In this document: positions 14,942-45,119 of the stretch, piece by piece
Numbering within the stretch: position 1 is the first letter of the stretch
Layout: every line of letters starts with the position of its first letter
Assembly: GCA_048940445.1 (NCBI GenBank)
Contig: JBHLON010000001.1
Location: forward strand, 83,386-147,385
DNA: 64,000 nt
Direction: 5' to 3'
Source of the DNA: Promethearchaeota archaeon
GTDB lineage: Archaea; Asgardarchaeota; Lokiarchaeia; Sigyniarchaeales; SOKP01
Notes under the pieces: generated by a model
What the model saw: only the letters and a program-made list of their open reading frames with translations
Database searches by the model: none
What the model was told of the DNA's origin: nothing
Made by a program: the position numbers and the translations under genes

Positions 14942-15748
14942 TTAATTTAATAGTGCTCTAATTTTACTAACAATCTTATGTAAATAAAATTCAGCTATCC
15001 CAAATTTAGTTTTAGAATCAAATATCAAAATAATTAGATAATTTTCATTAAAGTATTCTGAAAAGATAAGCTCGTTGTCTTTGGAAGTATAAAACATTTT
15101 TAAAATAGAATTATTATAGATTTTAATCCTGAAATCTATTTCTTTCAATGCCTTTTTTAATGATCTTTTGTCTTTCGTAGTAGAATAAAGTATTTTTCCT
15201 CCATTAGTCAAAAAGATAATTTCACTAATTTCATCACTCAATTGAATAGTTTTTATATATTTGATCACTTTATCTTCTTTTTCTAAATTGTATTCCTTGC
15301 TTGAAATTTCTTTAATAACGTGTTTTATATCATCATCTAATTGGTTATCGTAAATGTATTCTAGCTCTGTTCTAATCTGATTTTTTTTAACATATTTCAT
15401 GAATTTTATATTTATACGGTTTATGATTCTCTTAAGTATAATCGAATTCTCGTTAATATCACATAATAGAGCATAAAAAAGTGTAGCTTTCTCAAAAATA
15501 ACAAGCTTTATTCCTCCACCCATTTCCAAATTTTTTATCTTGTTTCCAATTAATTCTTTTGTAAAAGACATAAGAGCTGTAAAATAAGAAGATATTAATT
15601 GTTCTTGTTCTAATCTAAAAACATCTGTAAAATTAATTCCATAAATGCAAATTCCTGACCTATTAAAGATAAGTAAATTATGAATACTATAAATTTCCGA
15701 TGATCTTTTAATTTTTGAGATAAATGGAGAGTTCTCCTGTATTGTCAT
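14942..15748 (-). CDS. Tandem longin (sybindin/TRAPP Bet5-like) + roadblock-like protein
   Basis: 268 aa. 'IHNLLIFNRSGICIYGINF...LISSYFTALMSFTKEL...IKLVIFEKATLFYALLCD' resembles the TRAPPC1/Bet5 and sigma-adaptin longin-fold N-termini. A second alpha/beta module is 'IIFLTNGGKILYST...YLIILIFDSKTKFG'. Confidence 0.5.
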   Translation of the reverse strand: MTIQENSPFISKIKRSSEIYSIHNLLIFNRSGICIYGINFTDVFRLEQEQLISSYFTALMSFTKELIGNKIKNLEMGGGIKLVIFEKATLFYALLCDINENSIILKRIINRINIKFMKYVKKNQIRTELEYIYDNQLDDDIKHVIKEISSKEYNLEKEDKVIKYIKTIQLSDEISEIIFLTNGGKILYSTTKDKRSLKKALKEIDFRIKIYNNSILKMFYTSKDNELIFSEYFNENYLIILIFDSKTKFGIAEFYLHKIVSKIRALLN

Positions 15749-16410: not shown

Positions 16411-16513
16411 ACGGAATTGGTTGATTAAGTAATTTATTAAATCAAATTTTTTTTACTTACTTATTAAAAAAAAGAAAGAAATTTAATTTTTAAGTTTAAA
16501 TCAATATAATATC

Positions 16514-17857
16514 TCAGTTTTCCTCCAACATCTGCATTAGAATAGCTTCCATCATGATACCAGTTTGTACACCCACGGACATTGATTCCTCGTACTGAGT
16601 GTCATCCCATTCATCTTCTGGAATTATATAGCCTAATTCATCATTACCTAAACCAATTTGAAACTTATATGATGCAGTCATCGCTTCTCGTAGGCGAAAA
16701 CCTATACTTGGTAATACTTCTCCTGGCATTGTAATTATTTGAGCGTTTCCAATAGTAATAAGATTTACTTCTGTGGTTATAATCCCCAAACCTGGAGAAT
16801 CAACATACCAAGGTTGTTCTCTAGAAAGTATACCCATTTGTAAAGCACCAAAAAATTGCATATTTTCTAATGGGACTGAGAATGTTTCTTTTTCCACGTT
16901 AAAAGCGATTTTAGGTAGAGACTTTTTCACAGATCTATGGGGTTTCAGAGCATTAATTGTGGCTTTTGCGAGAGCATAACCTATTTCTTTTGCTTTTTCA
17001 AATGTATGTTCTTCTACATCTGGTGTAATCATCCCTCCTAAAGCTCCATTGAAGAAGATTGCAACACCACCAAATTTCTTTTCAACTTTATTACGTAAGT
17101 ACCCCACATAATCTGAAGATATGGCATAATTATCTGACCAAAGAACCTCTGGATGCCCTGCAAAATTAATTAATGTAGCTATTGTATGACCTCTCTTATC
17201 CTCTACTTTCATTAGGCTTAAGTCGGGATATACGCGTCCTGGATCTCGTGAATTTTTCATCAATCCCGGAACAGAGGCTGAAGCAAATCGAATTCTAGCC
17301 TTTTCCAAATTTTTATATGATTGACCAATACAATCCATAATTTGATTTTTTATATATCCCATATAAGCTAAATTGACGCCCCAATCTGGGATTGGAGCGG
17401 ACCAAAGTCCAAGAGTGTCAGGTCCAGAATGAGTATGAGTACATGCTATAATAATATTATTTGCATTGATACCGTATTCTGCCTCAACTTCTTTTCTTAC
17501 CTCATCTACTTGATCAATAAAATAACCAATTAAATCAAGAGCTACAAGTACTATCGATTTTCCTCCATAATTTAAGATTAAACACCGAACAAAAATATCA
17601 TCATGAACTGCCACTGCAGGACGATCTCCAATATCGCCAAATCCAGCAAGGAAAACAGGGTATCCATCTGGATATATAGGAACACCCTCCTCTGTAGTCA
17701 TCGGAGTTATTGGTAATGAAAATGCTCCAGCCATTAATTTCAATGTAGGTTTTTTACATGCTGTAGCTCCCACGGGAAAAGCAAAAATTGATAATCCCAT
17801 GATTAAGACGAGTGTAAATACTTTTACTTTCGTTTTATTCATTTTAAAGCACCTCAA
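16514..17857 (-). CDS. Secreted neutral/alkaline ceramidase-family hydrolase (N-terminal domain type)
   Basis: Signal peptide 'KVFTLVLIMGLSIFAFPVGATAC'. Motifs 'AGAFSLPITP', 'VHDDIFVRCLIL' and 'ACTHTHSGPD' are typical of the neutral ceramidase family. Confidence 0.6.
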   Translation of the reverse strand: MRCFKMNKTKVKVFTLVLIMGLSIFAFPVGATACKKPTLKLMAGAFSLPITPMTTEEGVPIYPDGYPVFLAGFGDIGDRPAVAVHDDIFVRCLILNYGGKSIVLVALDLIGYFIDQVDEVRKEVEAEYGINANNIIIACTHTHSGPDTLGLWSAPIPDWGVNLAYMGYIKNQIMDCIGQSYKNLEKARIRFASASVPGLMKNSRDPGRVYPDLSLMKVEDKRGHTIATLINFAGHPEVLWSDNYAISSDYVGYLRNKVEKKFGGVAIFFNGALGGMITPDVEEHTFEKAKEIGYALAKATINALKPHRSVKKSLPKIAFNVEKETFSVPLENMQFFGALQMGILSREQPWYVDSPGLGIITTEVNLITIGNAQIITMPGEVLPSIGFRLREAMTASYKFQIGLGNDELGYIIPEDEWDDTQYEESMSVGVQTGIMMEAILMQMLEEN

Positions 17858-18172
17858 TGATTAGAAGAAAAGTATTTTTCTTAAAATCATTTTAATTGAA
17901 ACTTAATTAGTTTTTCTTAGATTTCTATACAATCTATGATAATTAAAAGATATAAAAATCTTACCTATATGTCAAAAAATTAAAAATTTTATACTGTATT
18001 CTCATTTAAATTACACTTTTTATAATTTATAGTCATTACACACACAATTTATAGAATAAAAAATTCTAAAACAAATCGCCTTATCCGTTAACCCTACCCT
18101 TTTTAAGTAGAATTTTTTATTCTACATTCTCTCCTTTTCCTTGAATCTTTTAGAAAGAAGGATTAGATTATT

Positions 18173-18724
18173 TTAATCTTTTTTTAATTCTTTATCCACT
18201 ATAAAAAAACCTATTGATAAAACACTTCTCAATCTCTGTAAATCGTCCTTTAATTTTTTTACACGTTGATAGGGCCCTGAAACGGCTAAAATCTCTAAAC
18301 ATTTTTCATATTCTAAATGAACATGCAGAGTAGAAATAATAATATCATTAAAATGATGTTGAATATCAGTTTTTAAGATCTCATCAGTTTGGTAAGTACT
18401 AGCATAGATAGGTCGTGAACCAAAATCATGAGTATGATGTGATTCATCGTGGTCAATCACATGAGAATGATCATGTAAATCGTGATCTTTTTCATCATCT
18501 TGGTTAGTATTTTTTTGCTCAAAATGTTTGTGTATCATGACTATTGAAATACAACCAACTACATTTCCAGAAATTATAGGAATGTTTTCTTCGGCCACCA
18601 TCAAAGCTTTCATGGCTTTTCTAATAGCATCAGACCTAGATATATTGATAGCCTCTCTAAAGGTTTCAAATTCTTCATAAAGATCTCTAGGGAGAGAGAC
18701 TGTGAATCGTTTATATTCTTCCAT
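18173..18724 (-). CDS. nikR: NikR-type nickel-responsive regulator (ribbon-helix-helix + C-terminal metal-binding domain) with a His/Asp-rich insert
   Basis: RHH N-terminus 'KRFTVSLPRDLYEEFETFREAINISRSDAIRKAM'. His-rich 'HDLHDHSHVIDHDESHHTHDF'. C-terminus 'HVHLEYEKCLEILAVSG'. Confidence 0.75.
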   Translation of the reverse strand: MEEYKRFTVSLPRDLYEEFETFREAINISRSDAIRKAMKALMVAEENIPIISGNVVGCISIVMIHKHFEQKNTNQDDEKDHDLHDHSHVIDHDESHHTHDFGSRPIYASTYQTDEILKTDIQHHFNDIIISTLHVHLEYEKCLEILAVSGPYQRVKKLKDDLQRLRSVLSIGFFIVDKELKKD

Positions 18725-18757
18725 ATTTTATAAAATATTATAATTAGATTATGTAAT

Positions 18758-19492
18758 TTATTTCTTTATAACAATCGCAATTGGAACCGATGCTTCACGC
18801 CATTGTGCTATCTTACCTGAATATTCTAAGTCTAATTTTACACGTCCATGGTCTCCGAGGATAATCATTAAAGAGTTAGGTCTCAATTGCTTATAGTTGC
18901 TTAAAATCCATTTATCTGTGCGAAGTATCAACTTCTCAATCAAATCTTCAGGTGTTCTTTGCTTCAAAGCCTGTTGTTGTTTATGGAGATTTTCAAAATC
19001 TAGATAGTGCATTAAAGAAATATCAAAATTATTAATAGTTTTGGCACTCTCAATCCAAGTCGCCATATCTGTTTCTTTAGGAACTGAAAGTGTTCCAGCA
19101 GCATATCGTTCCACATCTTTTTTTCTACCAATTAAACATGACTTTTTTCCTTTTTCATTAAGATATCGTAATAGATGAAAATGGTTGGGTTCCATAGTAA
19201 AACCCCCATAAAATATTTGGTGAAGTACTCCTAATGTATATGGATTTTTAGTAGATAACAACAACATCATTTCAGATTGGCGTATCATAAATTCGGGTTT
19301 ATGATAAGTAATTTCAAAAAGACCAAAATTATCAATAATGTTAATACTAATTCTTTCAACACCGTGATAAGCCTCAATCATAGAATCTACAGGTTCTGGA
19401 ATGATATCAAGGGGGGGATCAATATCAAGTAATTTTAAAAAGGTAGCCGGTAATTGGTTTAAATAGCATTTAATTGTTTGAAGTTCACTCAT
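18758..19492 (-). CDS. Hypothetical protein, possibly alkaline-phosphatase-superfamily-like
   Basis: 244 aa. It has a C-terminal 'MIILGDHGR' (an xDHG motif of the AP/nucleotide pyrophosphatase superfamily). The N-terminal catalytic motifs are not clear. Confidence 0.3.
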   Translation of the reverse strand: MSELQTIKCYLNQLPATFLKLLDIDPPLDIIPEPVDSMIEAYHGVERISINIIDNFGLFEITYHKPEFMIRQSEMMLLLSTKNPYTLGVLHQIFYGGFTMEPNHFHLLRYLNEKGKKSCLIGRKKDVERYAAGTLSVPKETDMATWIESAKTINNFDISLMHYLDFENLHKQQQALKQRTPEDLIEKLILRTDKWILSNYKQLRPNSLMIILGDHGRVKLDLEYSGKIAQWREASVPIAIVIKK

Positions 19493-30898: not shown

Positions 30899-30989
30899 TG
30901 CGTCGTCCGGGATTTGAACCCGGGTCCCGCGCGTTCTGCTTTCAATTAGAAAATGGCAGGCGCGGATTCTACCACTATACTAACGACGC
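30899..30989 (-). tRNA. tRNA-Gly (anticodon GCC) with a canonical 37/38 intron (~20 nt)
   Basis: The reverse complement gives acceptor GCGTCGT/ACGACGC, D-arm GTAT-AGTGGTA-GAAT, and anticodon stem CGCGC/GCGCG with loop CTGCCA[intron]C. The T-arm is CCGGG-TTCAAAT-CCCGG and the discriminator is A. Intron 'GCAG' can pair with 'CTGC' of the anticodon loop. Confidence 0.85.
30934..30953 (-). other. Canonical-position intron of tRNA-Gly(GCC)
   Basis: 20 nt 'TTTTCTAATTGAAAGCAGAA' (tRNA-sense) lie between A37 and C38. Removing them yields a 71-nt tRNA. Confidence 0.7.
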
Positions 30990-31060: not shown

Positions 31061-31924
31061 TTAATCTTTTAAATCAAATATTATTTCAACTGAACTGACA
31101 ATCCCCAACTTACGGGCAAATCTTCTAATATATTGAATCCTATGTTTTTTAATTACATCTGAGACAATCAAAGTTGGAATAAAAGGAAGGATCATAAAAA
31201 AAGGGAACGGAATGAAAATTGCCAATAAAATGGAAAATAAACTTGTAAAACTAGCCGTTTCTACTAAAAAGATAGTAATAAATTCAAAATAGGAGAATAT
31301 TACTGATACACCAGCGTAACCTTTTAGAAATTGCCCATACCATCTCCCTATAGAACGAACCTCAGGTGGATTAATTGTTTTATCTAATTTATTTCTATTA
31401 GAATAGATTATACCAGAATCACTTAAAAACCATGTAGTAGAGAAAAGTATTGTTGCAAGAAAAAAAGTTAGTACTAATAATACTACAAAGGTAGTAGCAT
31501 AATCTGCTTGAGTAGTCGGTATGCTCCCTCTTGAGAAGGTGACAATTTCAGGAGTAAGTAAAAATAATGAGAAATTAATAGCCATTAATGCAGAAAATAA
31601 ACCAGAAGAAAAATATTTAAATTTGGGAAATTCTGGTCTATTGAAAAGTCCATATTCCATTTTGGTTTTAAAGATTTTTTTATGGATATAAAGAAAAAAC
31701 GGTGAAAATCCATATCCACCAACAAATAAACCAATTAAAGAAGATACGGGTAATATGATTATAGAAAGTAATCCTGTTTCTAATCCCATATCAGAAATTG
31801 GAATTAATTTAGTTAAATCATCGGTTCTTCCAATAATTAAAGAAAAAGTAATAGAGATCCCAATCCAAAATAAGCAATAAAATAAAAAGAACAATAAAGC
31901 TCGTTTATATTTCCCAATTTTCAT
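31061..31924 (-). CDS. Polytopic membrane protein, unknown family, translationally coupled to the upstream small GTPase
   Basis: 287 aa with multiple TM helices. Its ATG (31922-31924) is 1 nt from the GTPase stop codon (31926-31928). Confidence 0.6.
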   Translation of the reverse strand: MKIGKYKRALLFFLFYCLFWIGISITFSLIIGRTDDLTKLIPISDMGLETGLLSIIILPVSSLIGLFVGGYGFSPFFLYIHKKIFKTKMEYGLFNRPEFPKFKYFSSGLFSALMAINFSLFLLTPEIVTFSRGSIPTTQADYATTFVVLLVLTFFLATILFSTTWFLSDSGIIYSNRNKLDKTINPPEVRSIGRWYGQFLKGYAGVSVIFSYFEFITIFLVETASFTSLFSILLAIFIPFPFFMILPFIPTLIVSDVIKKHRIQYIRRFARKLGIVSSVEIIFDLKD

Positions 31925-31925
31925 A

Positions 31926-32444
31926 TTATTTTACCATAATTCTACTAATTATATCAAATACTATATCTATATTTTCTCCAGTTTTGGAAGAACACTCTAA
32001 ATATTCTAAGAAATTATTTTCATTGGTAAAATTTTTAGCTTCTTCCTGGGAGATTGTTCTATTCTCCATAAGATCTAATTTACCACCAACTAAGACTTTA
32101 GGAACTTCTTGATTATGAGTTTGATTTGAATTATCAAACACCGTTAGCCAATCTGTTAAATTTTTAAAAGTATTATATCGGGTAAGATCATACATAAAGA
32201 TAGCCCCATGTGTGCCTACTAGAGTGCTAGATAATAAAAATCTGAACTTATCTTCACCTGCAAAATCCCATATATGAAGAGCAATCTTATTACCATTCAA
32301 ATGTAGTTTCTTTACATAAAAATCCATGCCTAATGTTAATTTGTATGACTCTTTAAAAACACCAGAAAGATATCGATGCGTTAGAGTAGTCTTTCCAACA
32401 GCAGAATCCCCTAAAATGCAGACCTTATACTGATTATCTTCCAT
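31926..32444 (-). CDS. Rab/Ras-like small GTPase (Asgard-type), no C-terminal lipidation motif
   Basis: G1 'GDSAVGKT'; switch I 'TLGMDF'; G3 'WDFAGED'; G4 'GGKLD'; G5 'CSSKTG'. 172 aa, ending '...RIMVK'. Confidence 0.85.
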   Translation of the reverse strand: MEDNQYKVCILGDSAVGKTTLTHRYLSGVFKESYKLTLGMDFYVKKLHLNGNKIALHIWDFAGEDKFRFLLSSTLVGTHGAIFMYDLTRYNTFKNLTDWLTVFDNSNQTHNQEVPKVLVGGKLDLMENRTISQEEAKNFTNENNFLEYLECSSKTGENIDIVFDIISRIMVK

Positions 32445-35321: not shown

Positions 35322-35948
35322 TTAATCTCTCGATTTTAATTTATTGAGTTCTTCTTCTAATTCCTTAATCTTACCATCGGGTTCTACAGAGGGTAATGCT
35401 CCCCCTACTTCAGCTCCAATTTCTGCATCTATTTCACCTAAAACATCCTTAACATCAGTATCAGTAACTGCAGTATCAATCATTAAATCATTTATTCCAT
35501 CAGTAGTTATTTCTTCCGTAACATTAAAGTCTTCGATATCTACTCCAATTTGAGTCATAAGTTCGGTAATTTGTGGAATTGATAATGAATTTTTTAGCGC
35601 ACCAAGACTCATTGCTATTCCTCTCATAATTTCAGCAACATCTTTTACAGCACTAGCTTGTTCCAACTTAAAGACCATACCTTCAAGGTTTGTCCTGAAT
35701 AGGTCTATTGCTCTTGCTTGTTTCTTAACTTGTAAGTAGTTACGAGCGTGAAATTCCGAACCCTGCATATCACCAGCTTTTCGAAGATTGACAGCTTTGT
35801 CCCTTGCAAGTTTTGCTGACATCTCCATTTTTTTTGTTTGCCTCATTAATCGTTTGTTAAAAACTTTTAATTTTACGGTCGCAGATCGTACAGTATCCTT
35901 TTTACGACCTCCGGATAACCAACCCGAAAGATCTTTCAAAAATCCCAT
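35322..35948 (-). CDS. ESCRT-III (Snf7/CHMP family; Vps2/24/46-like)
   Basis: 208 aa. The N-terminal half is a basic helical hairpin ('KLKVFNKRLMRQTKKMEMSAKLARDKAVNLRKAG...'). The C-terminal half is acidic. The terminal 'IKELEEELNKLKSR' has MIM1-like Leu spacing. The gene is divergent from vps4. Confidence 0.85.
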   Translation of the reverse strand: MGFLKDLSGWLSGGRKKDTVRSATVKLKVFNKRLMRQTKKMEMSAKLARDKAVNLRKAGDMQGSEFHARNYLQVKKQARAIDLFRTNLEGMVFKLEQASAVKDVAEIMRGIAMSLGALKNSLSIPQITELMTQIGVDIEDFNVTEEITTDGINDLMIDTAVTDTDVKDVLGEIDAEIGAEVGGALPSVEPDGKIKELEEELNKLKSRD

Positions 35949-36163
35949 TTTTCATCAACTTTTAGTTAATTTATATAATATAAAAAAATTCGAGATTATA
36001 TAATTTTTTGTAGACCAATAATTAAGATGATAAATCTCGAGGAGACATCATACCAAAAAGAAAATTTGTATTAACTTTTTTTAATGTTTAATAAAAGTGA
36101 AGATTGGTATTAGATTAATTTAAATAACAATTGAAATATTATAAAATAAAATAAGCTAAAAAT

Positions 36164-36180
36164 AAGAGGTTTTAATTATC
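36164..36180 (+). promoter_or_regulatory. Shine-Dalgarno (AAGAGGT) plus in-frame near-cognate start candidates ATT (36175) / ATC (36178) for vps4
   Basis: GAGGT at 36166-36170 immediately follows the in-frame stop TAA (36163-36165). ATT and ATC lie 4 and 7 nt downstream, in the Vps4 frame. Confidence 0.45.
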
Positions 36181-37395
36181 TCATCAGTAGACTCAAAACT
36201 ATATCAATATGCAGTCCAAGAAGCTCAAGCTGCTGTAAATTTAGATGAAAAAGGTCATTTACACCAAGCAATGAATAAGTACTTTAGAGCAGCAGAAATA
36301 CTTATTCAATTTATTAAGTATAATAAAAATCCAATTATGATCAGAAAGTGTAAAGATCAAATTGAACAATACATGACTAGGGCTCAAGTTCTTAAAGAGC
36401 ATCTAAGTGGTCCAAGAGCTAGGAGGCCACATCCAAAGGCAACTCCTAGTGAACCACATGAAGGAGAACCAAATGCAGAGGAAGGAAGTCTATCAGCTGA
36501 GGAGCAGGAACTCATGGACTCTATTTCAGACACAATCTTAACAGAATCCCCTAATGTTAAGTGGAACGAAATCGCAGGTCTAAGCGATTGTAAGCAAGCA
36601 GTAAGAGAAGCTATTGTATTACCAATCATGAAACCGGATTTATTTACAGGTGCAAGAAAACCATGGTCGGGAATATTGTTATTTGGACCTCCTGGATGCG
36701 GAAAAACATTATTAGCAAAAGCGGCTGCCACGGAATGTAAAGCGACATTTTTTAGTGTCTCATCAGCAGATTTATTAAGCAAATGGTTAGGTGAAAGTGA
36801 AAAATTAATCTCATCGCTTTTTAAGTTAGCCCGAACAAGAGCACCAAGCCTAATTTTTATGGACGAAATTGATTCCGTAACCACGACTAGAGGTAGTGGA
36901 CATGAAGGAGGAGGAGAGAGAAGAGTCAAAACTCAGTTATTACAAGAAATTCAAGGCGTTAAATCAACTCATGATAAGCCAATGCTTGTGCTGGGAGCTA
37001 CAAACCGACCTTGGGATATTGATATAGCAATGTTAAGCAGATTTGAAAAGAAAGTATACGTGCCACTTCCAGATCAACCAGCAAGAGCAGGTATTTTTAA
37101 GATTCATACTTCAGGAGTTAATTCTGCCTTAACAGAAGAAGATTATATTGAATTAGCAGTTCGTACTGAGTCTTATTCTGGTAGAGACATATCAAATATT
37201 TGCCGTGAAGTCATTATGATTCCTGTAAGAGAATTAGATATGGGTGGGTTACTGGAAGATCCGGAAAAAGAAGTTGTTGTGAGAGATATAAACCTAAAAG
37301 ATTTTTTAAAGACTATAAAGAAAGTAAAGCCAATGATGACTAAGGCTGAATTGAAGAAATATCAAGTATGGGCAGAGGAATTCGGAGAATTTTAG
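36178..37395 (+). CDS. vps4: Vps4 AAA+ ATPase (MIT domain + AAA + Vps4 C-terminal helix)
   Basis: Walker A 'GPPGCGKT', Walker B 'LIFMDEID', 'ATNRPWDID' and 'LSRFEKKVYVPLP'. The MIT helices 'LYQYAVQEAQAAVNLDEKG / HLHQAMNKYFRAAEILIQFIKY / IMIRKCKDQIEQYMTRAQVLKEHL' start upstream of the first ATG (36271, the conservative start). The proposed start is ATC 36178 or ATT 36175. Confidence 0.9.
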   Translation: MSSVDSKLYQYAVQEAQAAVNLDEKGHLHQAMNKYFRAAEILIQFIKYNKNPIMIRKCKDQIEQYMTRAQVLKEHLSGPRARRPHPKATPSEPHEGEPNAEEGSLSAEEQELMDSISDTILTESPNVKWNEIAGLSDCKQAVREAIVLPIMKPDLFTGARKPWSGILLFGPPGCGKTLLAKAAATECKATFFSVSSADLLSKWLGESEKLISSLFKLARTRAPSLIFMDEIDSVTTTRGSGHEGGGERRVKTQLLQEIQGVKSTHDKPMLVLGATNRPWDIDIAMLSRFEKKVYVPLPDQPARAGIFKIHTSGVNSALTEEDYIELAVRTESYSGRDISNICREVIMIPVRELDMGGLLEDPEKEVVVRDINLKDFLKTIKKVKPMMTKAELKKYQVWAEEFGEF

Positions 37396-37396
37396 G

Positions 37397-38281
37397 ATGG
37401 AGAAACAAAGAGAAAAACCAAAAGAAATTCCAAAAAAAGTTGAAGAAAAAGCAACAATAGATCTAGATGAATTAAGAAAGGAGTTAGCACGATTAAAAGA
37501 ACTGAAGAAACAAAGAGAGTCAGAGAAGCCTCCGGAAGACATTGTTAAGGAAGAAGAAGTTATTGAAAAACCAATTTCAGAAAACATTGGAACTCGGTTA
37601 GATAGAATTGAGGATTTCTTGACAAGTAAACTTGGTGATGTAGATTTAGAAGCATATAAGCAACATTCTGCTCAAATAGAAAAAGAACTTAAAAGCATAG
37701 AACAAGAATTAGTAGGTGAAGAAGGTGTTATAGCTAAAGAGATCTCTACCTACGAATTACTACTCAATGATTATCCTTGGCTTGAAGAAAAAAGATATGT
37801 ATTCATGTATTCTATCCCTAATAAAAAAAATAATCTTAAAGATTTCGAATCATGGAAGAATGAATGGTCAAAGGTACTTTTTGATTATGCAAGATATGCA
37901 ATTCTTCACATTTTATATTTAAGAAAATTAGAATCGGAGAAGCCATTCTCTAAATTTGAAAACAGAAATACAGCTTTAGAAATAATTGCGCAGGAATTAG
38001 TCGATAGAAACCAGGCAGAATGGCTTACAAAAAGCAAAGAGAAATTAAGAATATATTGGAAAACTCTTGACAATTGGGCAGAGGAAATTTATGAATGGGC
38101 CATGGAAATATCACCTCTAGAACCCATTTTGATATTTGAAATAAGAGAATCTAATAGAGCTTTCAGTACATTACCAAAAGAGGATTTGCTTGAAATTTTC
38201 AAAAGACTTGAGAAAAATGAACGTGGAAGGATTATTAAGTCAGAGGATGGCCAAATATCTTTCAAAATAAAGGTAGAATAG
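37397..38281 (+). CDS. vps25: ESCRT-II Vps25-like protein with a ~110-aa charged N-terminal extension
   Basis: 'NQAEWLTKSKEKLRIYWKTLDNWAEEIYEWA' compares with human VPS25 'GNLEWLDKSKSSFLIMWRRPEEWGKLIYQWV' (recalled from memory). The C-terminus '...RIIKSEDGQISFKIK' compares with '...AEIITVSDGRGVKFF'. The ATG is 1 nt after the vps4 stop. Confidence 0.8.
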   Translation: MEKQREKPKEIPKKVEEKATIDLDELRKELARLKELKKQRESEKPPEDIVKEEEVIEKPISENIGTRLDRIEDFLTSKLGDVDLEAYKQHSAQIEKELKSIEQELVGEEGVIAKEISTYELLLNDYPWLEEKRYVFMYSIPNKKNNLKDFESWKNEWSKVLFDYARYAILHILYLRKLESEKPFSKFENRNTALEIIAQELVDRNQAEWLTKSKEKLRIYWKTLDNWAEEIYEWAMEISPLEPILIFEIRESNRAFSTLPKEDLLEIFKRLEKNERGRIIKSEDGQISFKIKVE

Positions 38282-38285
38282 ATTT

Positions 38286-39014
38286 TTATATCGAGGGAAA
38301 ATACCATTGCTTCCCCTTTAAAAGGGACTCTCTATATTTTGCAATACCACTTTGCTCAAGAGAATGCAAAGTCTCTAATGCTCGATCCTGAGCCCAATTT
38401 AACCCCACACATACATCCTCTAAAGACAGAAAACCCTTATCTTTAGCAATTTCTAAAACTTTTACTTGATCACTAGTATATTGTACTGGAAAGAATCTAA
38501 TCATTATAGTGCCTGAATCCAATTCAATTAAATCATCAATTACTTGATTTTTCTTTAGTATCTTCAATGCTTTATTTAAGTCTTTAATATCAACGTTTCC
38601 TTTTAAAATTCCGGTATTTATCATGTCAAAAACTTCTGAAATAGGAATTATTCCGGCTCCAATTTCTTCTTTTTGCATAAGAACTCTTTGATATGCTAAC
38701 ATACCTAACTTCTCATGATCTACCTTTGAAGACCTTTTTAAAACATCATGTTCATTAATTTGCTCGGTGATGATTTTAGAAGTAGGAATTTTATATTCTT
38801 TTTGTAAATATTTTACTTCATCCTTTAATTCTGGTGTTAAAGCTAAAACAACTCCATGTTTCTTAGCTAATTCTCTTAATCTTTCCTTTGTAAACTTTTC
38901 TGTTTCTGCTTTAGCTTGAATGTCTTTTATTCTAAGCTCTGCTGCCTTTTTCTTGATCGCTTCTTTTAAGTCAATTTCATCTTCTATTTTTCGAATACCC
39001 ATCCTGCCTAACAC
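38286..39014 (-). CDS. ESCRT-II Vps22/36-like (EAP30 domain) protein
   Basis: The N-terminal 'GRMGIRKIEDE...' helix, then tandem winged helices ending 'LNWAQDRALETLHSLEQSGIAKYRE...KQWYFPS'. This matches the SNF8/EAP30 C-terminal pattern. Confidence 0.8.
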   Translation of the reverse strand: MLGRMGIRKIEDEIDLKEAIKKKAAELRIKDIQAKAETEKFTKERLRELAKKHGVVLALTPELKDEVKYLQKEYKIPTSKIITEQINEHDVLKRSSKVDHEKLGMLAYQRVLMQKEEIGAGIIPISEVFDMINTGILKGNVDIKDLNKALKILKKNQVIDDLIELDSGTIMIRFFPVQYTSDQVKVLEIAKDKGFLSLEDVCVGLNWAQDRALETLHSLEQSGIAKYRESLLKGKQWYFPSI

Positions 39015-39080
39015 TATTTTTTAATATCTTACTTGATTAATATTAATAAATCTACTTATTTCTTTTGATTTTTCTCTGTT

Positions 39081-39656
39081 ATGAATATTTCAAAAAAAGT
39101 TAGACGAGTTAATAACTTTGAAAAAAAAATTATAACTAATACTTTTAATCAAATTTCACCAAAATTCAATGAATTGTTAGAAGAAGATAAATTTTCTATG
39201 TATATAACCTTAAATAAAGAACCTGAAAAACAGCAAATTTCAATTTACTTAATTCACAGAAAATTAAATTATTTAGAGCAATTGATTAATTTTGCTGATA
39301 TACACTCATTTGGTCTTTATTTTGGTTTCATAAAAAAAGGAAAATTCTTTTTAAGCTTAGAAGGAGCTGATTTTCTGTATAAAGGAAACTTTATTTCTAA
39401 AAAAGATGAACTCATAGTTAATAAAGAAGGAGAGAAGGCTATTCTTTATGGAAATAACGTACTAAAGAAAATGATATTACATTTTCCCCTAGAAGCAAAA
39501 AGTGAAAGTCTAATAATGATTTTAAACGAATTAGAAGAATTAATAGGTATTGGGTTTACTAAGATTAAAGGTGATGATTTCAACAAATATTTTCCAGAGG
39601 ATCTGATTACAGTAAATTTAATCGATAAAGGGTATTACCTAAGAAGAGAAAATTAA
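39081..39656 (+). CDS. NIP7-like ribosome biogenesis protein (UPF0113, C-terminal PUA domain)
   Basis: 'HSFGLYFGFIKKGKFFLSLEGADFL' and 'EKAILYGNNVLKKMI' follow the NIP7 pattern. A Nop2/Sun methyltransferase gene is adjacent. Confidence 0.65.
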   Translation: MNISKKVRRVNNFEKKIITNTFNQISPKFNELLEEDKFSMYITLNKEPEKQQISIYLIHRKLNYLEQLINFADIHSFGLYFGFIKKGKFFLSLEGADFLYKGNFISKKDELIVNKEGEKAILYGNNVLKKMILHFPLEAKSESLIMILNELEELIGIGFTKIKGDDFNKYFPEDLITVNLIDKGYYLRREN

Positions 39657-39659
39657 TTA

Positions 39660-40646
39660 TTAAGTTATTCTTTTAATCAAGCAAAAAAAGAATCCAATTG
39701 TATTATGAAGATGAGGATATAGCCTCTGAGAATATTTAAGGTCATCCAAAAGGTGTTTTTTATAATAAGATGTTAATCCTTGCATTCCATAATTTTTATT
39801 AATTTTTTGAATTTTAAATTTAGACTGATTTCTCAAAACCTTGTCTATTACTAATTCATTCTCTTCAGGACTTATAGAACAAGTACTATATAATAATAAG
39901 CCCTCTTGCTTTAATGAATGGAGTCCAGCATTTAATAATTCTTTCTGGACTTTAGCCAATTTTTCTAAGTCATGCATAGTTCTACTCTTTTTTCTACTTG
40001 AATCCTCTCTTATTAAACCCTCACCGGTACAAGGAGCGTCCAATAATATTTTATCAGCTTTAATGTTTAATTCTAATAAATTTCTTGCATCATTTTTTAA
40101 AATAATTGAATTGTTAATTCCCATTCTGCGTATATTCATTTCTAAAGACGAAATTCTCTTAGAATTTTTTTCAATTAGAATAAGAGTTCCTTGATTATTC
40201 ATAATTTGAGCTAAATGGGTTGATTTGCCTCCAGGAGCAGCGCACATATCTATTACAATTTCATTTATTTTGGGATTGAGAATCATTGGCGGAAGCATAG
40301 AGGCGGTATTTTGTAAATAATAATAACCTTGTAAATACTCATGAGTAGAACCAAGATTAAATTTAGTTTTTAAAACCTCGAATCCATAGGGAATCCATTT
40401 TATATTTTTTAACTTTAAACCTTTCTTTGTTAATCTGTATTTTAAGTTCTCTGTAGTTATCCTTAATGTATTAACTCTCAAAGATGGAATCAATGGTATT
40501 TCATTTGCTTCTAATAGCTTTATAGTATCTTCCAAACCTAAAATTTGGATATATCTCTCAATCATATAGGGGAGATAACCAAACTTTTGGGCAAGTTCTT
40601 CGCTTCTTTTTAGGGGATTAGATATTTTACTGTCAACTCGATCCAT
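39660..40646 (-). CDS. RNA cytosine-C5 methyltransferase (NOL1/NOP2/Sun family)
   Basis: SAM motif 'VIDMCAAPGGKSTHL', catalytic 'LLDAPCTGEG' and 'LLYSTCS'. Confidence 0.9.
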   Translation of the reverse strand: MDRVDSKISNPLKRSEELAQKFGYLPYMIERYIQILGLEDTIKLLEANEIPLIPSLRVNTLRITTENLKYRLTKKGLKLKNIKWIPYGFEVLKTKFNLGSTHEYLQGYYYLQNTASMLPPMILNPKINEIVIDMCAAPGGKSTHLAQIMNNQGTLILIEKNSKRISSLEMNIRRMGINNSIILKNDARNLLELNIKADKILLDAPCTGEGLIREDSSRKKSRTMHDLEKLAKVQKELLNAGLHSLKQEGLLLYSTCSISPEENELVIDKVLRNQSKFKIQKINKNYGMQGLTSYYKKHLLDDLKYSQRLYPHLHNTIGFFFCLIKRIT

Positions 40647-40700
40647 TCTATTAATACTTAATAAAAAATAATGAATTATATTTGTTATTAGTAAAGTAAG

Positions 40701-41309
40701 TTGAAGGATATGATTGAAGTCGAAATAAAAGTAGCTATTTCTAATCCAAAGTTGATATTAACAAAAGTAAAAGAACTAAATGGAAAATATATTATGTCGT
40801 TGAATCATGAAGATACATACTATAATATGCCAAATGGTTTAAGAAATTTCAAAGAAACCGATGAAGCACTCCGAATAAGGAAAGTTATCGAATTTAATAA
40901 ATATAAAGCTGATAAATCTTACTTGATCAAGGGTTATATCACTTATAAAGGACAAAAAATCGACCAAACAACCAAAACTCGTGAAGAAATAGAGATTGAA
41001 ATAGATGATTTCAAAAGTATGAAAAGTATGTTATTACATCTTGGATTTAAAGAAATAATTACTGTAAAGAAAGAAAGGGAATTATATGAATTTTGGTTTA
41101 AAAATAACAAAATTGAATTATTACTGGATTTTTTACCCCTTCTAAATCAAAATTTCATAGAAACTGAAATAATAATAAATGATAAGAAAAATATCAATAA
41201 AACTAAAGAGATTATGTTCGACTTTCTTAAACTATTTGGAGTAACTGAAAAGGAATCAATAAGAGAATCTTATTTAGAGTTAATAACAAAAAAGCTGCAT
41301 ATTCTATAA
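40701..41309 (+). CDS. CYTH-domain protein (triphosphate tunnel metalloenzyme / CyaB-like)
   Basis: ExExK signature 'IEVEIKV' at the N-terminus, 'EALRIRK', and 'EIEIEID'. The TTG 40701 or ATG 40710 start is uncertain. Confidence 0.75.
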   Translation: MKDMIEVEIKVAISNPKLILTKVKELNGKYIMSLNHEDTYYNMPNGLRNFKETDEALRIRKVIEFNKYKADKSYLIKGYITYKGQKIDQTTKTREEIEIEIDDFKSMKSMLLHLGFKEIITVKKERELYEFWFKNNKIELLLDFLPLLNQNFIETEIIINDKKNINKTKEIMFDFLKLFGVTEKESIRESYLELITKKLHIL

Positions 41310-41342: not shown

Positions 41343-41519
41343 TTAATTTGATAGCAATTCAGCGAACTTTTGGATCTCCATTTCTAATTCTTTTTTAATG
41401 ATACATAGATTATAGTTTTCATAAACGATTTTGGCAGCATCAGTTTGAATTAATTTTGCCTTCTTAGAAATTTTATTTACAAAATCTAAAAATTGATAAT
41501 AATCGGCATTATTCTCCAT
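41343..41519 (-). CDS. Possible small helical protein (58 aa), below the ORF-track threshold
   Basis: My manual translation is 'MENNADYYQFLDFVNKISKKAKLIQTDAAKIVYENYNLCIIKKELEMEIQKFAELLSN*'. It has no obvious SD. It is the only ORF in a 537-nt gap. Confidence 0.25.
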   Translation of the reverse strand: MENNADYYQFLDFVNKISKKAKLIQTDAAKIVYENYNLCIIKKELEMEIQKFAELLSN

Positions 41520-43402: not shown

Positions 43403-43708
43403 ATGAAATATGTGGTATTGATGGAGGATATAAAAAAAAATGCTCTTGTTATTTACGAAGCAATTTTTGAAAGAAAAAAAAAAGTGATTATTGATGAAAT
43501 TGAATATCCTATCGAAAAATTCTCAAGCGGTGTTAAATATTTAGATTATTTTGGTTATCGTTATATTCAACAAAACTGGAAAAAAAAGTCAGAATGGGGT
43601 AAAAAAGCTCGCGAAGGACATAAAATTATGTGGATCATTAAAGGAAGACGTTATATAGCTAGAATTATGGATGGAGAATATACAGATTTGTTAAAAAAAG
43701 AAAATTGA
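43403..43708 (+). CDS. Hypothetical small basic protein
   Basis: 101 aa, divergent from the HD gene. It contains 'YRYIQQNWKKKSEWGKKAREGHKIMWI' and has no confident family. Confidence 0.4.
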   Translation: MKYVVLMEDIKKNALVIYEAIFERKKKVIIDEIEYPIEKFSSGVKYLDYFGYRYIQQNWKKKSEWGKKAREGHKIMWIIKGRRYIARIMDGEYTDLLKKEN

Positions 43709-43772: not shown

Positions 43773-45119
43773 CTATATTTTCAGCGATTTCAAGGATTTA
43801 ATTGATTCGGGAATATTTTTTATTACATTTCCAGTAAGATCTAAAATTTTGAGATTTTGTAAATTAATTATATGTTCAGGAACACTATTAAGGTTTCCTT
43901 GATCCGTTTTCAGATAAAAGTATTCTAACTTTTCTAAATTACCTATAGAGGCTGGAATTTCACCGATTTTATTATAATTCAAATTTAAAATCTGTAAGTT
44001 GGTTAATTCTCCAATACAATTAGGAATAAATCTAATATTTTGGTTTACCATACATAACTCTACTAATAACTTTAAATTGCAAATCTCTTTCGGGAAAATT
44101 CCAATAGGAGAAAGCTCTGAAGATATATAAAGAGTGTGTATATTACCATTATTATTAATTTTATAATAAAATAATAATGAATGAGAAGCAGAGCTATCTA
44201 ATTCTAATCTAATAAAAGCTTGACCAGTTAGAATCTCCAATAATCCTAATATCGAAGCCTCTTTAAAATTTACTCCATCTTTAACATATTTTTTAGTAAA
44301 ATAATCTTTTGAGGCTACTTTCAATACCCAATTCGGAATGCTTTCAATCTGATTGTTATTTAATATAAGATTTTTAAGATTAGACAAATAACCAGAATCA
44401 TCTGGTATGGATTCAATTTTACTACGTTTAATTACTAAATTCTCTAATTTAGAGAGGGTGTGAAGAGAATTTGGTATTTTTGCAAGATTTTCTAATACCA
44501 ATCCCGTGATACATCCATCTTTTGTCGATTTTATCCTCCCTAAACCTTTAAATCCTATTTCAGAATTCTCCTTAAATAATTTTTTTCTTTCAATTTCAGA
44601 TATTTTAAATTTATTTGAAAATTCACTAAAGGTCTTGATGAATTTTTCATAATCAAGAAAATCTAATTCTAATATAAATCTAGAATCTGCTTTTCTTAGA
44701 TTGTAAATCATTTCTAATTTTTTTAGAATTTTTTCTTTAAAGATTTGAAGTTTTGAATCTTGAGATTCATCTATAAAATCCAACATTTTTTTATAAAATA
44801 AAATAGATTTTTCATTGTTAACTAACCAATTTAATGCATTTTTAGTTTGATCAAGATTATTTTTAAGAGCAAATTTTGCGGCACTAAATCTTACTAAAGG
44901 TGATTCATCAGTGATTATACATTTTTCGACGATTTTAACAACTTTTTCATTAAAAAATGATAATTTTTCGATTAGGTTAATTGCTTGAACCCTAATTTCT
45001 TCCTTATCACTTTCATTGATAAACGATTCAAGATTCTTTAGGGCTTCAATTTTATTAACTTTATTCTTTATAAAATCTTCATAAATTCTATCTGGATCAA
45101 AATTTTTATCCATCTTCAA
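43773..45119 (-). CDS. HEAT-like + leucine-rich-repeat (LRR) protein
   Basis: N-terminal HEAT/PBS-lyase-like repeats ('DESPLVRFSAAKFALKN'). C-terminal LRRs include 'LSNLKNLILNNNQIESIPNWV', 'LTNLQILNLNYNKIGEIPASIGNLEKLEYF' and 'LQNLKILDLTGNVIKNIPESI'. Confidence 0.8.
   Translation of the reverse strand: MKMDKNFDPDRIYEDFIKNKVNKIEALKNLESFINESDKEEIRVQAINLIEKLSFFNEKVVKIVEKCIITDESPLVRFSAAKFALKNNLDQTKNALNWLVNNEKSILFYKKMLDFIDESQDSKLQIFKEKILKKLEMIYNLRKADSRFILELDFLDYEKFIKTFSEFSNKFKISEIERKKLFKENSEIGFKGLGRIKSTKDGCITGLVLENLAKIPNSLHTLSKLENLVIKRSKIESIPDDSGYLSNLKNLILNNNQIESIPNWVLKVASKDYFTKKYVKDGVNFKEASILGLLEILTGQAFIRLELDSSASHSLLFYYKINNNGNIHTLYISSELSPIGIFPKEICNLKLLVELCMVNQNIRFIPNCIGELTNLQILNLNYNKIGEIPASIGNLEKLEYFYLKTDQGNLNSVPEHIINLQNLKILDLTGNVIKNIPESIKSLKSLKI

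Follow-up and report, generated by a model that had tools for sequence, protein, structure and literature searches.

The window analysed here, a stretch of 64,000 nucleotides (64 kb), comes from a Promethearchaeota MAG and carries at positions 35322-39014 a block of four ESCRT genes. This block is almost certainly orthologous to the ESCRT core locus of Lokiarchaeum GC14_75 (Lokiarch_37450-37480), where the locus was first reported, and it encodes ESCRT-II together with the late-acting part of an ESCRT pathway whose genes are scattered. The block is already known, having been published from the first Lokiarchaeum genome with the same neighbouring genes. For this reason, and because the partners supposedly missing from it seem to be encoded elsewhere in the genome, the finding is an ordinary one. 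The source, a Loki-type Asgard, agrees with the lineage that the original prediction had read from the block.

The block and its counterpart in Lokiarchaeum

A check of the open reading frames at 35322-39014 recovered the four genes with the coordinates and orientations first described. These are an ESCRT-III gene, assigned below to the A type (35322..35948, minus strand; 208 aa, MFX1495989.1), vps4 (36178..37395, plus strand), vps25 (37397..38281, plus strand; 294 aa, ACFFBH_00555) and the gene for a Vps22-like EAP30 protein (38286..39002, minus strand; 238 aa, ACFFBH_00560). In a profile search each product scored above the curated Pfam cut-offs (Snf7 27.3, MIT 30, Vps4_C 21.3, ESCRT-II/Vps25 27 and EAP30 26.8 bits), which bears out the identities proposed for them. 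Pfam likewise confirms the flanks, an MFS transporter and a NIP7-like gene. On the ESCRT-III side lie MFS, PfkB and Ras GTPase genes, and on the other NIP7/UPF0113 (39081-39656, plus strand), an RsmB/F methyltransferase (39660-40646, minus strand) and a CYTH protein (40701-41309, plus strand). This conserved NIP7-RsmB-CYTH flank (39081..41309) is outside the ESCRT module and can be used as a set of synteny markers.

The published order in GC14_75 is ESCRT-III / Vps4 / Vps25 / Vps22 / NIP7 / RsmB / CYTH (Makarova 2024, Table S2), and the accession numbers of its Vps4 (KKK42121.1) and Vps2/24/46 protein (KKK42122.1) are adjacent (PMC7240154). The window has the same content, order and relative orientation (Lokiarch_37450 Vps22, 37460 Vps25, 37470 Vps4, 37480 Vps2/24/46-like) and the same three flanking genes, NIP7, RsmB and CyaB/CYTH, on one side. 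Identities by tblastn are 66.8% for Vps22 (from 39002), 49.7% for Vps25 over its full length, 67.9% for Vps4 (residues 1-405, beginning at 36178) and 69% for ESCRT-III. The two loci also share a Vps25 with an N-terminal extension of ~125 aa and an A-type ESCRT-III with a MIM1-like tail. The window lineage nevertheless differs from GC14_75 at the genus or family level, Vps25 being only 50% identical. The vps4-vps25 spacer is 1 nt in the window and about 21 nt in GC14_75, whose vps4 has a canonical start, whereas that of the window is predicted to be ATC or ATT.

The same four-gene core occurs on six related contigs (L003-L008), which belong to four or more other assemblies. NIP7, RsmB and CYTH follow it in the same order in L003, L005 and L007, and two extra genes stand between NIP7 and RsmB in L005, L006 and L007; the shorter contigs stop early, L004 within RsmB, L006 before RsmB and L008 within Vps22. 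The description of the module as unusually minimal is not supported: it is collinear with the GC14_75 locus, its core recurs on all six contigs, and its partners (a B-type ESCRT-III and a steadiness-box protein) are found on another contig, very probably of the same MAG.

Probable partners encoded outside the window

Searches of the 64 kb with Pfam (~60 ORFs), phmmer and tblastn (queries: Lokiarchaeum, Thor, Odin and Heimdall ESCRT and ubiquitin proteins) detected no second Snf7 gene, no Vps28, Vps23/UEV or steadiness-box gene, and no ubiquitin, E1, E2, RING or JAB gene, so that the absence of ESCRT-I and ubiquitin genes noted near the block extends to the whole window. In Lokiarchaeota, ESCRT and ubiquitin genes lie in separate regions (PMC9192718).

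Another contig (L010) encodes a B-type ESCRT-III (Vps20/32/60; P0222, MFX1498361.1), which scores 314 bits to Lokiarch_16760. Beside it is a 704-aa Zn-ribbon/coiled-coil/PH/steadiness-box (SB) protein that matches the Thor SB protein (3e-32) and, weakly, Vps23_core, and is a likely ESCRT-I component; the pairing recurs in L091, L092 and GC14_75. We infer that L010 very probably belongs to the window MAG, from the proximity of its accessions to those of the window genes (MFX1495989-93), a shared sequencing run (Logan run SRR34261206 holds both P0222 and the window Snf7 gene), similar GC (28.4%, against 29.4% for the window) and the neighbouring L35Ae gene, whose orthologues of at least 90% identity have accession numbers no more than about 2,600 away from those of proteins tagged to the four closest MAGs of the window. 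The claims that there is only one ESCRT-III paralogue and no steadiness-box gene therefore hold for the 64 kb but, very probably, not for the MAG.

It could be argued that the pathway is truly reduced, canonical ESCRT-I (Vps28, Vps23-UEV) and ubiquitin coupling having been lost in the organism or its sub-lineage, with the Zn-ribbon/PH/SB protein as the sole upstream component, if there is any. The lack of ESCRT-I and ubiquitin genes in the 64 kb speaks for this reading, which we consider unlikely. The matches listed, and a motif-based scan of species representatives, yielded no Vps28, Vps23-UEV or ubiquitin for the window MAG, which may nevertheless encode them. The 120 matches listed, of 184, include no ACFFBH-tagged Vps28, and none of the 80 Vps28 loci in species-representative genomes is on JBHLOY, JBHLNU, NJBI, JAUWAA or SDMY, assemblies that carry the exact block, though not all of them may be in the scanned collection. 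Absence from the window is, however, expected, since in GC14_75, whose block is identical, other contigs encode Vps28 (Lokiarch_10170), Vps23 (Lokiarch_16100) and a ubiquitin cluster, and Vps28 stands alone in 80/80 of the Promethearchaeota loci examined. Vps28 also diverges fast (in one MAG the B-type ESCRT-III is ~81% identical to that of GC14_75 and Vps28 only 41%), and therefore both the matches and the scan can miss this clade. In addition, Loki_b31, with the same synteny, carries an E2-like protein; Vps28 (ACFFFB_27190) occurs in a MAG whose Vps25 shares 86% identity with that of the window, albeit on a short and possibly mis-binned contig; and the SB protein itself is encoded on what is likely a contig of the same MAG.

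Affinities of the four proteins

The ESCRT-III protein matches Pfam Snf7 with 60.6 bits (2e-16). Its N-terminal half is basic (pI 10.6) and its C-terminal half acidic (pI 4.05), and its terminal helix, IKELEEELNKLK, matches four of the six MIM1 consensus positions, in keeping with the acidic tail and MIM1-like helix first reported; Asgard Vps2/24/46 proteins carry MIM1-like helices (PMC7240154). Against Thor and Heimdall ESCRT-IIIA the protein scores 60-61 bits, against CHMP2A 43, against CHMP1B 32 and against B-type proteins 19-26; in the PDB it is matched best by CHMP2A (3e-10) and CHMP1B (5e-7), the solved CdvB chain reaching 2.7e-3. Based on these scores and PDB matches, the protein is assigned by sequence to the late-acting A type (Vps2/24/46, i.e. 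CHMP1-3 or the Vps24 family). The view that the module leaves the nucleation of ESCRT-III unexplained is not supported either: its resident protein is of a type other than the one that ESCRT-II would nucleate, and the B-type paralogue and the SB protein are encoded elsewhere, very probably in the same MAG.

Read from the ATC at 36178, Vps4 matches Pfam MIT (40.8 bits, profile positions 2-66 of 66), AAA (136.8), AAA_lid_3 (36.9) and Vps4_C (34.3), and is the divergently transcribed MIT+AAA protein that had been predicted. It matches yeast Vps4 (1.2e-96) and contains the motifs GPPGCGKT (Walker A), LIFMDE (Walker B), KWLGE (pore loop) and GERRVK. From the first canonical ATG, at 36271, the MIT score is just 20.8 bits (cut-off 30) and MIT helix 1 is lost, although AAA (137 bits), AAA_lid_3 (37) and Vps4_C (34.5) still match, and the frame is open upstream to 36166. 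Because a complete MIT domain needs it, the predicted start is non-canonical, either ATC 36178 (405 aa) or ATT 36175 (406 aa). The codon aligned to it is ATG in L007 and TTG in L005, AAGAGG stands just upstream (36164-36169), and the alignment of the ~75 nt upstream shows one base different from L003/L004. The AT-rich divergent region of 229 nt (35949..36177) between the ESCRT-III gene and vps4 presumably holds both promoters. With the last base of the vps4 stop codon at 37395 and the vps25 ATG at 37397, the 1-nt spacing originally given is upheld; because of this spacer, the two genes are probably co-transcribed and translationally coupled.

Vps25 matches Pfam ESCRT-II/Vps25 with 42.2 bits (1.2e-10, residues 151-250) and, in the PDB, 9uyv_A (1.3e-47, residues 101-292), Odin Vps25 (7pb9, 8e-26) and human Vps25 (1.4e-6). 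A helical N-terminal extension of ~125 aa precedes its tandem winged-helix core, made up of a conserved helix at residues 23-43, a linker that is acidic and variable (44-63) and a further helical segment, again conserved (64-125), the helix positions coming from a low-confidence AF2 model and the conservation from the alignment. The convergent fourth gene, whose stop codon is separated from that of vps25 by 4 nt, has an open frame at 38286-39014 and matches Pfam EAP30 (39.4 bits, 6e-10; residues 2-220 counted from ATG 39002). Its product is a Vps22-type protein, as it matches yeast Vps22 (8e-9) and human SNF8 (3.5e-7), and Vps36 only at 0.42. Orthologues begin MGIRKIEDE, which corresponds to ATG 39002, and relatives are called at 238 aa, making this the most likely start; the upstream GTG 39014 is probably unused.

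The best solved relatives of the window proteins are CHMP2A/CHMP1B, yeast Vps4 and Vps22/SNF8, and their affinity is with eukaryotes, not Cdv, as originally proposed. It is highly improbable that the block is a Cdv-type cell-division module, with CdvB/CdvC-like ESCRT-III and Vps4 and two winged-helix proteins that are unrelated regulators: CdvC is the top NCBIfam match of Vps4 (7.7e-83) and CdvB the sole one of ESCRT-III, but the library has no Asgard or eukaryotic model for either, both matches are far under the equivalog cut-offs (278 vs 650 and 18.5 vs 370 bits), CdvA is absent, for the MIT domain yeast Vps4 (1.4e-6) is a closer match than Sulfolobus CdvC (7e-4 and 0.04), and the ESCRT-III is closer to CHMP2A and CHMP1B than to the CdvB chain. 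Further, the two winged-helix proteins score above the cut-offs for ESCRT-II and EAP30 and find matches in solved structures of Vps25 and Vps22, and in published trees the 68-69% identical GC14_75 orthologues group with eukaryotes, Asgard Vps4 with eukaryotic Vps4 (PMC7240154).

Proposed pathway and comparison with known systems

By orthology with other Asgard proteins on which work has been published, a Vps22 homodimer with Vps25 arms would form ESCRT-II; Loki Vps22 self-associates, and among ESCRT-II genes it is Vps25 whose linkage to ESCRT-III and Vps4 is tightest (PMC9192718). Vps25 would then engage the B-type ESCRT-III (Vps20/32/60-like) encoded on the other contig, whose polymer would recruit the A-type protein of the window, A-type ESCRT-III being recruited by B-type (PMC11804906), and the MIT domain of Vps4 would bind the C-terminal MIM1-like helix of the A-type protein, leading to disassembly of the polymer. 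Upstream input would probably come from steadiness-box proteins encoded elsewhere, the SB protein beside the B-type gene being a candidate; another possible contact is a hairpin resembling a steadiness box that has been described in the N-terminal extension of Vps25. The sequence file of the published yeast two-hybrid work labels the Loki A and B proteins the other way round from those of Thor and Heimdall, and for this reason it is ambiguous which Loki ESCRT-III bound Vps25.

The second Lokiarchaeal ESCRT locus has the arrangement L35Ae / Znr_CC_PH_SB (asCOG cog.011556) / (MetE) / Vps20-family ESCRT-III / DHQS. L010, which is outside the window, has the order DHQS, B-type ESCRT-III, 704-aa Zn-ribbon/SB protein and L35Ae, like GC14_75, L091 and L092, and differs from that locus elsewhere in having no intervening MetE. 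The Thorarchaeota AB_25 cluster (ThorAB25_08990-09030: SB, ESCRT-IIIA, Vps4, Vps25, Vps22) shares the core ESCRT-IIIA, Vps4, Vps25 and Vps22, with consecutive locus tags, but has the Zn-ribbon/SB protein in the main cluster, beside ESCRT-IIIA, whereas in the window lineage it is beside ESCRT-IIIB on another contig.

With the eukaryotic system (yeast Vps22-Vps36-Vps25x2, Vps20/Snf7/Vps24/Vps2 and Vps4) the window shares the EAP30, ESCRT-II winged-helix, Snf7 and MIT-AAA-Vps4_C families, the MIM1-type tail of the A-type subunit and, with the B-type gene of L010, the division of ESCRT-III into A and B types. Unlike the eukaryotic set, the ESCRT-III paralogues of the window organism appear to be only two, and its Vps25 has the long helical N-terminal extension. 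Its Vps4 is 405 aa long, against 437 aa in yeast, and a preprint reports that an insertion of human VPS4 is missing from the MK-D1 homologue. Finally, in place of the eukaryotic Vps22/Vps36 pair the window encodes a single EAP30 protein, nearer to Vps22 and without a GLUE/PH domain, and the published Loki data suggest that self-association of Vps22 replaces that pair.

The ESCRT proteins encoded in the block

The original prediction of four ESCRT genes in the window holds: the ORFs lie at the predicted positions, and each protein passes the curated Pfam cut-off of its family (Snf7, AAA/Vps4_C, ESCRT-II and EAP30), with profile matches far beyond chance. The ESCRT-III gene (35322-35948, minus strand) matches Snf7 (PF03357) along residues 24-188 with 60.6 bits (cut-off 27.3). 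Its product shows the charge distribution of the Snf7 family, a basic core at the N-terminus (residues 1-110, pI 10.6, 25 K+R vs 11 D+E) being followed by the foreseen acidic tail, which is the expected autoinhibitory region (residues 111-208, pI 4.05, 7 K+R vs 23 D+E). Among A-type references (Vps2/24/46, that is, CHMP1-3) the protein scored 302 bits with Lokiarch_37480, 60-61 with the Thor and Heimdall ESCRT-IIIA proteins, 43 with CHMP2A and 32 with CHMP1B, versus only 19-26 bits with three B-type references (Vps20/32/60). The ranking of PDB matches also favours the A type, and on these scores the ESCRT-III of the window is an A-type protein. The predicted MIM1-like terminal helix is also present, in the C-terminal peptide DGKIKELEEELNKLKSRD. 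Compared with the consensus (D/E)xxLxxRLxxL(K/R), the C-terminus IKELEEELNKLK keeps four of the six positions (three Leu and the terminal Lys) and deviates at the others, with Glu for Arg and Ile for the leading acidic residue; by sequence it is a putative MIM1 helix. Comparably degenerate MIM1 helices have been reported in Asgard Vps2/24/46 proteins (PMC7240154).

The EAP30 protein (38286-39014, minus strand) matches EAP30 (PF04157) along nearly its whole length with about 39.4-39.6 bits (cut-off 26.8). It matches yeast Vps22 (8e-9) and human SNF8 (3.5e-7), versus 0.42 for Vps36, and has no space for a GLUE/PH domain, which together argue that it is Vps22-like. The most likely start is the ATG at 39002, giving a protein of 238 aa like its orthologues. 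The Vps25 gene (37397-38281, plus strand) matches ESCRT-II/Vps25 (PF05871) with 42.2 bits (cut-off 27), and its product is identical to MFX1495991.1 (ACFFBH_00555), from a 211-kb contig of a Promethearchaeota MAG. Both winged-helix proteins score above the Pfam thresholds for ESCRT-II and EAP30 and have solved Vps25 and Vps22 structures among their matches, which speaks against generic regulators. Vps4 and ESCRT-III in turn fall far below the NCBIfam equivalog cut-offs of the Cdv proteins, with 278.4 vs 650 for CdvC and 18.5 vs 370 for CdvB, respectively. On both points where the prediction could have been refuted, the outcome thus favours ESCRT.

The start of vps4 and the N-terminal extension of Vps25

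The vps4 gene (plus strand) ends at 37395, separated from the vps25 ATG at 37397 by the single nucleotide that had been predicted. Its product carries MIT, AAA (137 bits), AAA_lid_3 (37 bits) and Vps4_C (34.3-34.5 bits, cut-off 21.3) domains according to Pfam. There is a single AAA cassette, with Walker A (GPPGCGKT at 170), a KWxGE pore loop 1 (KWLGE at 202) and Walker B (LIFMDE at 225), together with the Vps4_C helix. A three-helix MIT domain is obtained only if the protein starts at ATC 36178 or ATT 36175. With ATC 36178 as start, the domain (PF04212) reaches 40.8 bits against a cut-off of 30, and positions 2-66 of the 66-position profile are covered; with ATG 36271, the earliest canonical codon, it scores 20.8 bits, below the cut-off, and retains helices 2 and 3 only. 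The frame is open back to 36166 and its upstream part encodes MIT helix 1, with no ATG, GTG or TTG in this open stretch. Read from 36178, the protein aligns with Lokiarch_37470, the Vps4 of Lokiarchaeum GC14_75, along residues 1-405, and its MIT domain matches that of yeast Vps4 (1.4e-6, residues 13-81) in all three helices. Where related contigs align at the start codon, L007 has ATG and L005 has TTG; ATC preceded by ATT is found in the window, L003 and L004. AAGAGG precedes the ATT (36175) and the ATC (36178) in the region 36164-36273, and in the first 30 codons downstream of the start many of the differences from L003 are synonymous. Given the MIT score, the full-length alignments, the aligned start codons and the synonymous differences, vps4 most likely starts at a non-canonical codon. 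Gene callers restricted to canonical starts cut Vps4 back to Met32, as seen in a Logan gene call. ORFs on the opposite strand inside vps4, vps25 and the ESCRT-III gene (e.g. 36384-36929, minus strand) were rejected as shadows of these well-supported genes.

Vps25 matches the solved chains 9uyv_A (1.3e-47), Odin Vps25 (7pb9, 7.9e-26), human Vps25 (1.4e-6) and yeast Vps25 (6e-3), and from such matches we infer a tandem winged-helix fold at residues 101-292. For an AF2 model of the full-length protein, 18 close homologues were aligned; the model resolved the winged-helix core poorly (mean pLDDT 50.6) and was for this reason used solely to place the helices of the N-terminal extension. This extension recurs in several hundred homologues of Vps25 that are 290-300 aa long. 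It comprises a conserved helix (23-43), a linker that is acidic and variable, and a conserved helical stretch (64-125) in which IEDFLTS is invariant, the helices being those of the low-confidence model. A search profile made from residues 1-128 retrieved only generic coiled-coil noise from the PDB (best E 0.027), and its comparison with a Vps28 profile by hhalign gave a probability of 0.1%. Makarova et al. reported that residues 67-121 of a Loki Vps25 match the CdvA coiled-coil/steadiness-box model in HHpred with probability 89. This published hairpin link was not reproduced here, and a more sensitive method is needed. In the MK-D1 homologue the extension has been called unstructured in a preprint.

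The search for ESCRT and ubiquitin components outside the block

A search with Lokiarch_16760, the B-type ESCRT-III of GC14_75, retrieved a protein of 216 aa on another contig (P0222, MFX1498361.1) that is 73% identical to the query and scores 314 bits in direct comparison. Four lines, short of proof, tie this contig to the MAG of the window, to which it very probably belongs. Its accession is about 2,370 above those of the window genes (MFX1495989-93); it occurs in the Logan run SRR34261206, as does the Snf7 gene of the window at 100% identity; the G+C of its contig is 28.4%, that of the window 29%; and the L35Ae protein beside it has orthologues, at least 90% identical, with accession numbers no more than about 2,600 away from proteins tagged to each of the four MAGs nearest to the window, a link deduced from accession numbering without locus tags.

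Convergent with the B-type gene is a gene for a 704-aa protein annotated as a 'B-box zinc finger protein' (MFX1498360.1, L010 1584-3698, minus strand). This protein matches the Thorarchaeota steadiness-box protein ThorAB25_08990 along 381 residues (BLASTP, 3e-32), and residues 625-671 give a weak match to Vps23_core that is below the cut-off (E 0.02). It has a long middle region of low complexity, rich in Q, N, Y and P. Full-length orthologues, 44-49% identical, adjoin the B-type gene at two further loci (L091 and L092), and at the corresponding position GC14_75 has Znr_CC_PH_SB (cog.011556), an ESCRT-I component according to a proposal by Makarova et al.

By orthology with described systems, Vps22 and Vps25 would form ESCRT-II, Loki Vps22 being known to self-associate (PMC9192718), and Vps25 would engage the B-type ESCRT-III. 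The B-type polymer would then recruit the A-type subunit encoded in the window (PMC11804906); Loki CHMP1-3 does not polymerise alone in vitro. Finally, the MIT domain of Vps4 would bind the MIM1-like tail and the polymer would be disassembled (PMC7240154). Hatano et al. found Vps25 to be the tightest link of ESCRT-III and Vps4 (PMC9192718). In their Supplementary Data 1 (2022), Lokiarch_37480 is listed as 'ESCRT3B' and Lokiarch_16760 as 'ESCRT3A', whereas by sequence they are A and B, respectively; these Loki labels are the reverse of the Thor and Heimdall entries in the same file and of Souza et al. 2025. Because of the reversed labels, the partner in the reported 'Vps25-ESCRT-IIIB' two-hybrid interaction is ambiguous between the two Loki ESCRT-IIIs.

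No ESCRT-I or ubiquitin genes were detected in the 64-kb window, where neither human ubiquitin (phmmer) nor Loki and Heimdall ubiquitin (tblastn) found a match. Two small conserved ORFs considered as steadiness-box candidates (43403-43708, 95-101 aa; 41343-41519, 58 aa) gave no Pfam signal at E values up to 10. For Vps28, no protein with the ACFFBH tag of the window's MAG was found among the matches listed (120 of 184), and none of 80 Vps28 loci from a scan of genome contigs with two exact peptide motifs was on an assembly known to carry the block, in a collection that may not hold those assemblies. In the 80 Promethearchaeota genomes with Vps28, no other ESCRT or ubiquitin gene lies within 8 kb of it. 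In one MAG the B-type ESCRT-III is about 81% identical to its GC14_75 counterpart and Vps28 just 41%, pointing to fast divergence of Vps28. Fast divergence, the listing of 120 of 184 matches, the two-motif scan and the uncertain content of the collection make these searches weak evidence of absence.

A further reading takes up these results and, as a separate point, the start of vps4. Canonical Vps28 and Vps23-UEV may be missing from the Loki sub-lineage to which the window belongs (Vps25 at least 68% identical). Its only link from ESCRT-II to membranes or cargo might then be the Zn-ribbon/PH/steadiness-box protein together with a steadiness-box-like hairpin in the Vps25 extension. The non-AUG (ATC/ATT) start, which the two closest assemblies also have, might for its part lower the synthesis of Vps4 relative to the downstream vps25. 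We regard this reading as improbable. Loki_b31 (L005) encodes an E2-like protein, which speaks against absence, and a MAG with Vps25 86% identical to that of the window carries Vps28, on a 2.5-kb contig that is possibly mis-binned.

The orthologous locus of Lokiarchaeum GC14_75

Hatano et al. 2022 list Lokiarch_37450, 37460, 37470 and 37480 in their sequence file as Vps22, Vps25, Vps4 and ESCRT-III of GC14_75. Compared with the window over their full length (tblastn), these proteins are 67%, 50%, 68% and 69% identical, respectively. Table S2 of Makarova et al. 2024 gives the gene order in GC14_75 as CyaB/CYTH, RsmB, NIP7, EAP30/Vps22, Vps25, Vps4 and Vps24-family ESCRT-III, collinear with window 35322-41309, flank included, so that the window has the Lokiarchaeal core locus. 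The MFS transporter and NIP7-like gene predicted to flank the block are both present, the latter encoding a NIP7/UPF0113 protein. The four-gene core is also found on six related contigs (L003, L004, L005, L006, L007 and L008), with NIP7, RsmB and CYTH behind it on every contig that extends far enough.

Three of these contigs have two additional genes between NIP7 and RsmB (L005 12728-15132, L006 12524-14799, L007 12446-14480), a pair that is absent in the window, L003 and GC14_75. One encodes a protein of 433-440 aa without Pfam match, the other a protein of 236-351 aa that matches HTH_HVO_0163_N below the Pfam cut-off (E 3e-6 to 3.5e-5). At a distance of about 3 kb from the block, the gene for a Ras-family GTPase (31926-32444, minus strand, Ras 1.8e-44) is followed after 1 nt by that for a 287-aa multi-pass membrane protein without Pfam match (31061-31924, minus strand), and this pair is kept in L003 and L004. 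ACFFBH_00510 (28930-29772, plus strand) is a gene conserved in L003, L005 and L007 at 4-8 kb from the block. Its 280-aa product carries a zinc ribbon at the N-terminus and matches nothing in Pfam significantly, and no similarity to the Thor Zn-ribbon/steadiness-box protein was detected. A leucine-rich-repeat protein is encoded at 43773-45119 (minus strand); in L003, a 788-aa Roc/Ras-LRR (ROCO-like) gene is added beside the orthologue (region 16417-18783). A 447-aa protein (16514-17857, minus strand) matches the neutral/alkaline ceramidase N-terminal domain (PF04734, 4.5e-16). The ORFs at 14942-15748 and 10758-11645 (both minus strand) have no significant Pfam match, the former with a weak hint of a longin domain (Fuz_longin_1, E 0.0098). 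Finally, an Rfam tRNA match at 30899-30989 (minus strand, 48 bits) spans 91 nt against a model of 71 positions and may be an intron-containing archaeal tRNA; ARAGORN found no tRNA in the whole window.

The proposal that the module is unusually minimal is not supported, as GC14_75 and its relatives have the same block and the B-type ESCRT-III and steadiness-box protein are encoded on another contig, very probably of the same MAG. In GC14_75, Vps2/24/46 (KKK42122.1) is numbered next to Vps4 (KKK42121.1) (PMC7240154), and Vps20/32/60 (KKK44605.1 = Lokiarch_16760 = PDB 9fn1_U) is encoded elsewhere, so that a nucleating paralogue missing from the block is the rule in the Lokiarchaeal lineage and no oddity. 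Vps28 (Lokiarch_10170), Vps23 (Lokiarch_16100) and a ubiquitin/E1/E2/JAB/RING cluster are likewise on other contigs of GC14_75, and Hatano et al. describe the ESCRT genes of Lokiarchaeota as lying apart from the ubiquitin genes (PMC9192718). As a lineage marker the block served well, correctly flagging the contig as Asgard (Loki-type).

The ESCRT system is central to models of eukaryogenesis. The probable non-canonical start of vps4, common to the two closest assemblies, is a new, if minor, observation. For GC14_75 and its relatives, publications already cover the gene set, its order and neighbours, the extension of Vps25 and the dispersal of the B-type, ESCRT-I and ubiquitin genes; the window holds one more orthologous copy of a locus that has been known since 2015 and was studied closely in 2020-2025.
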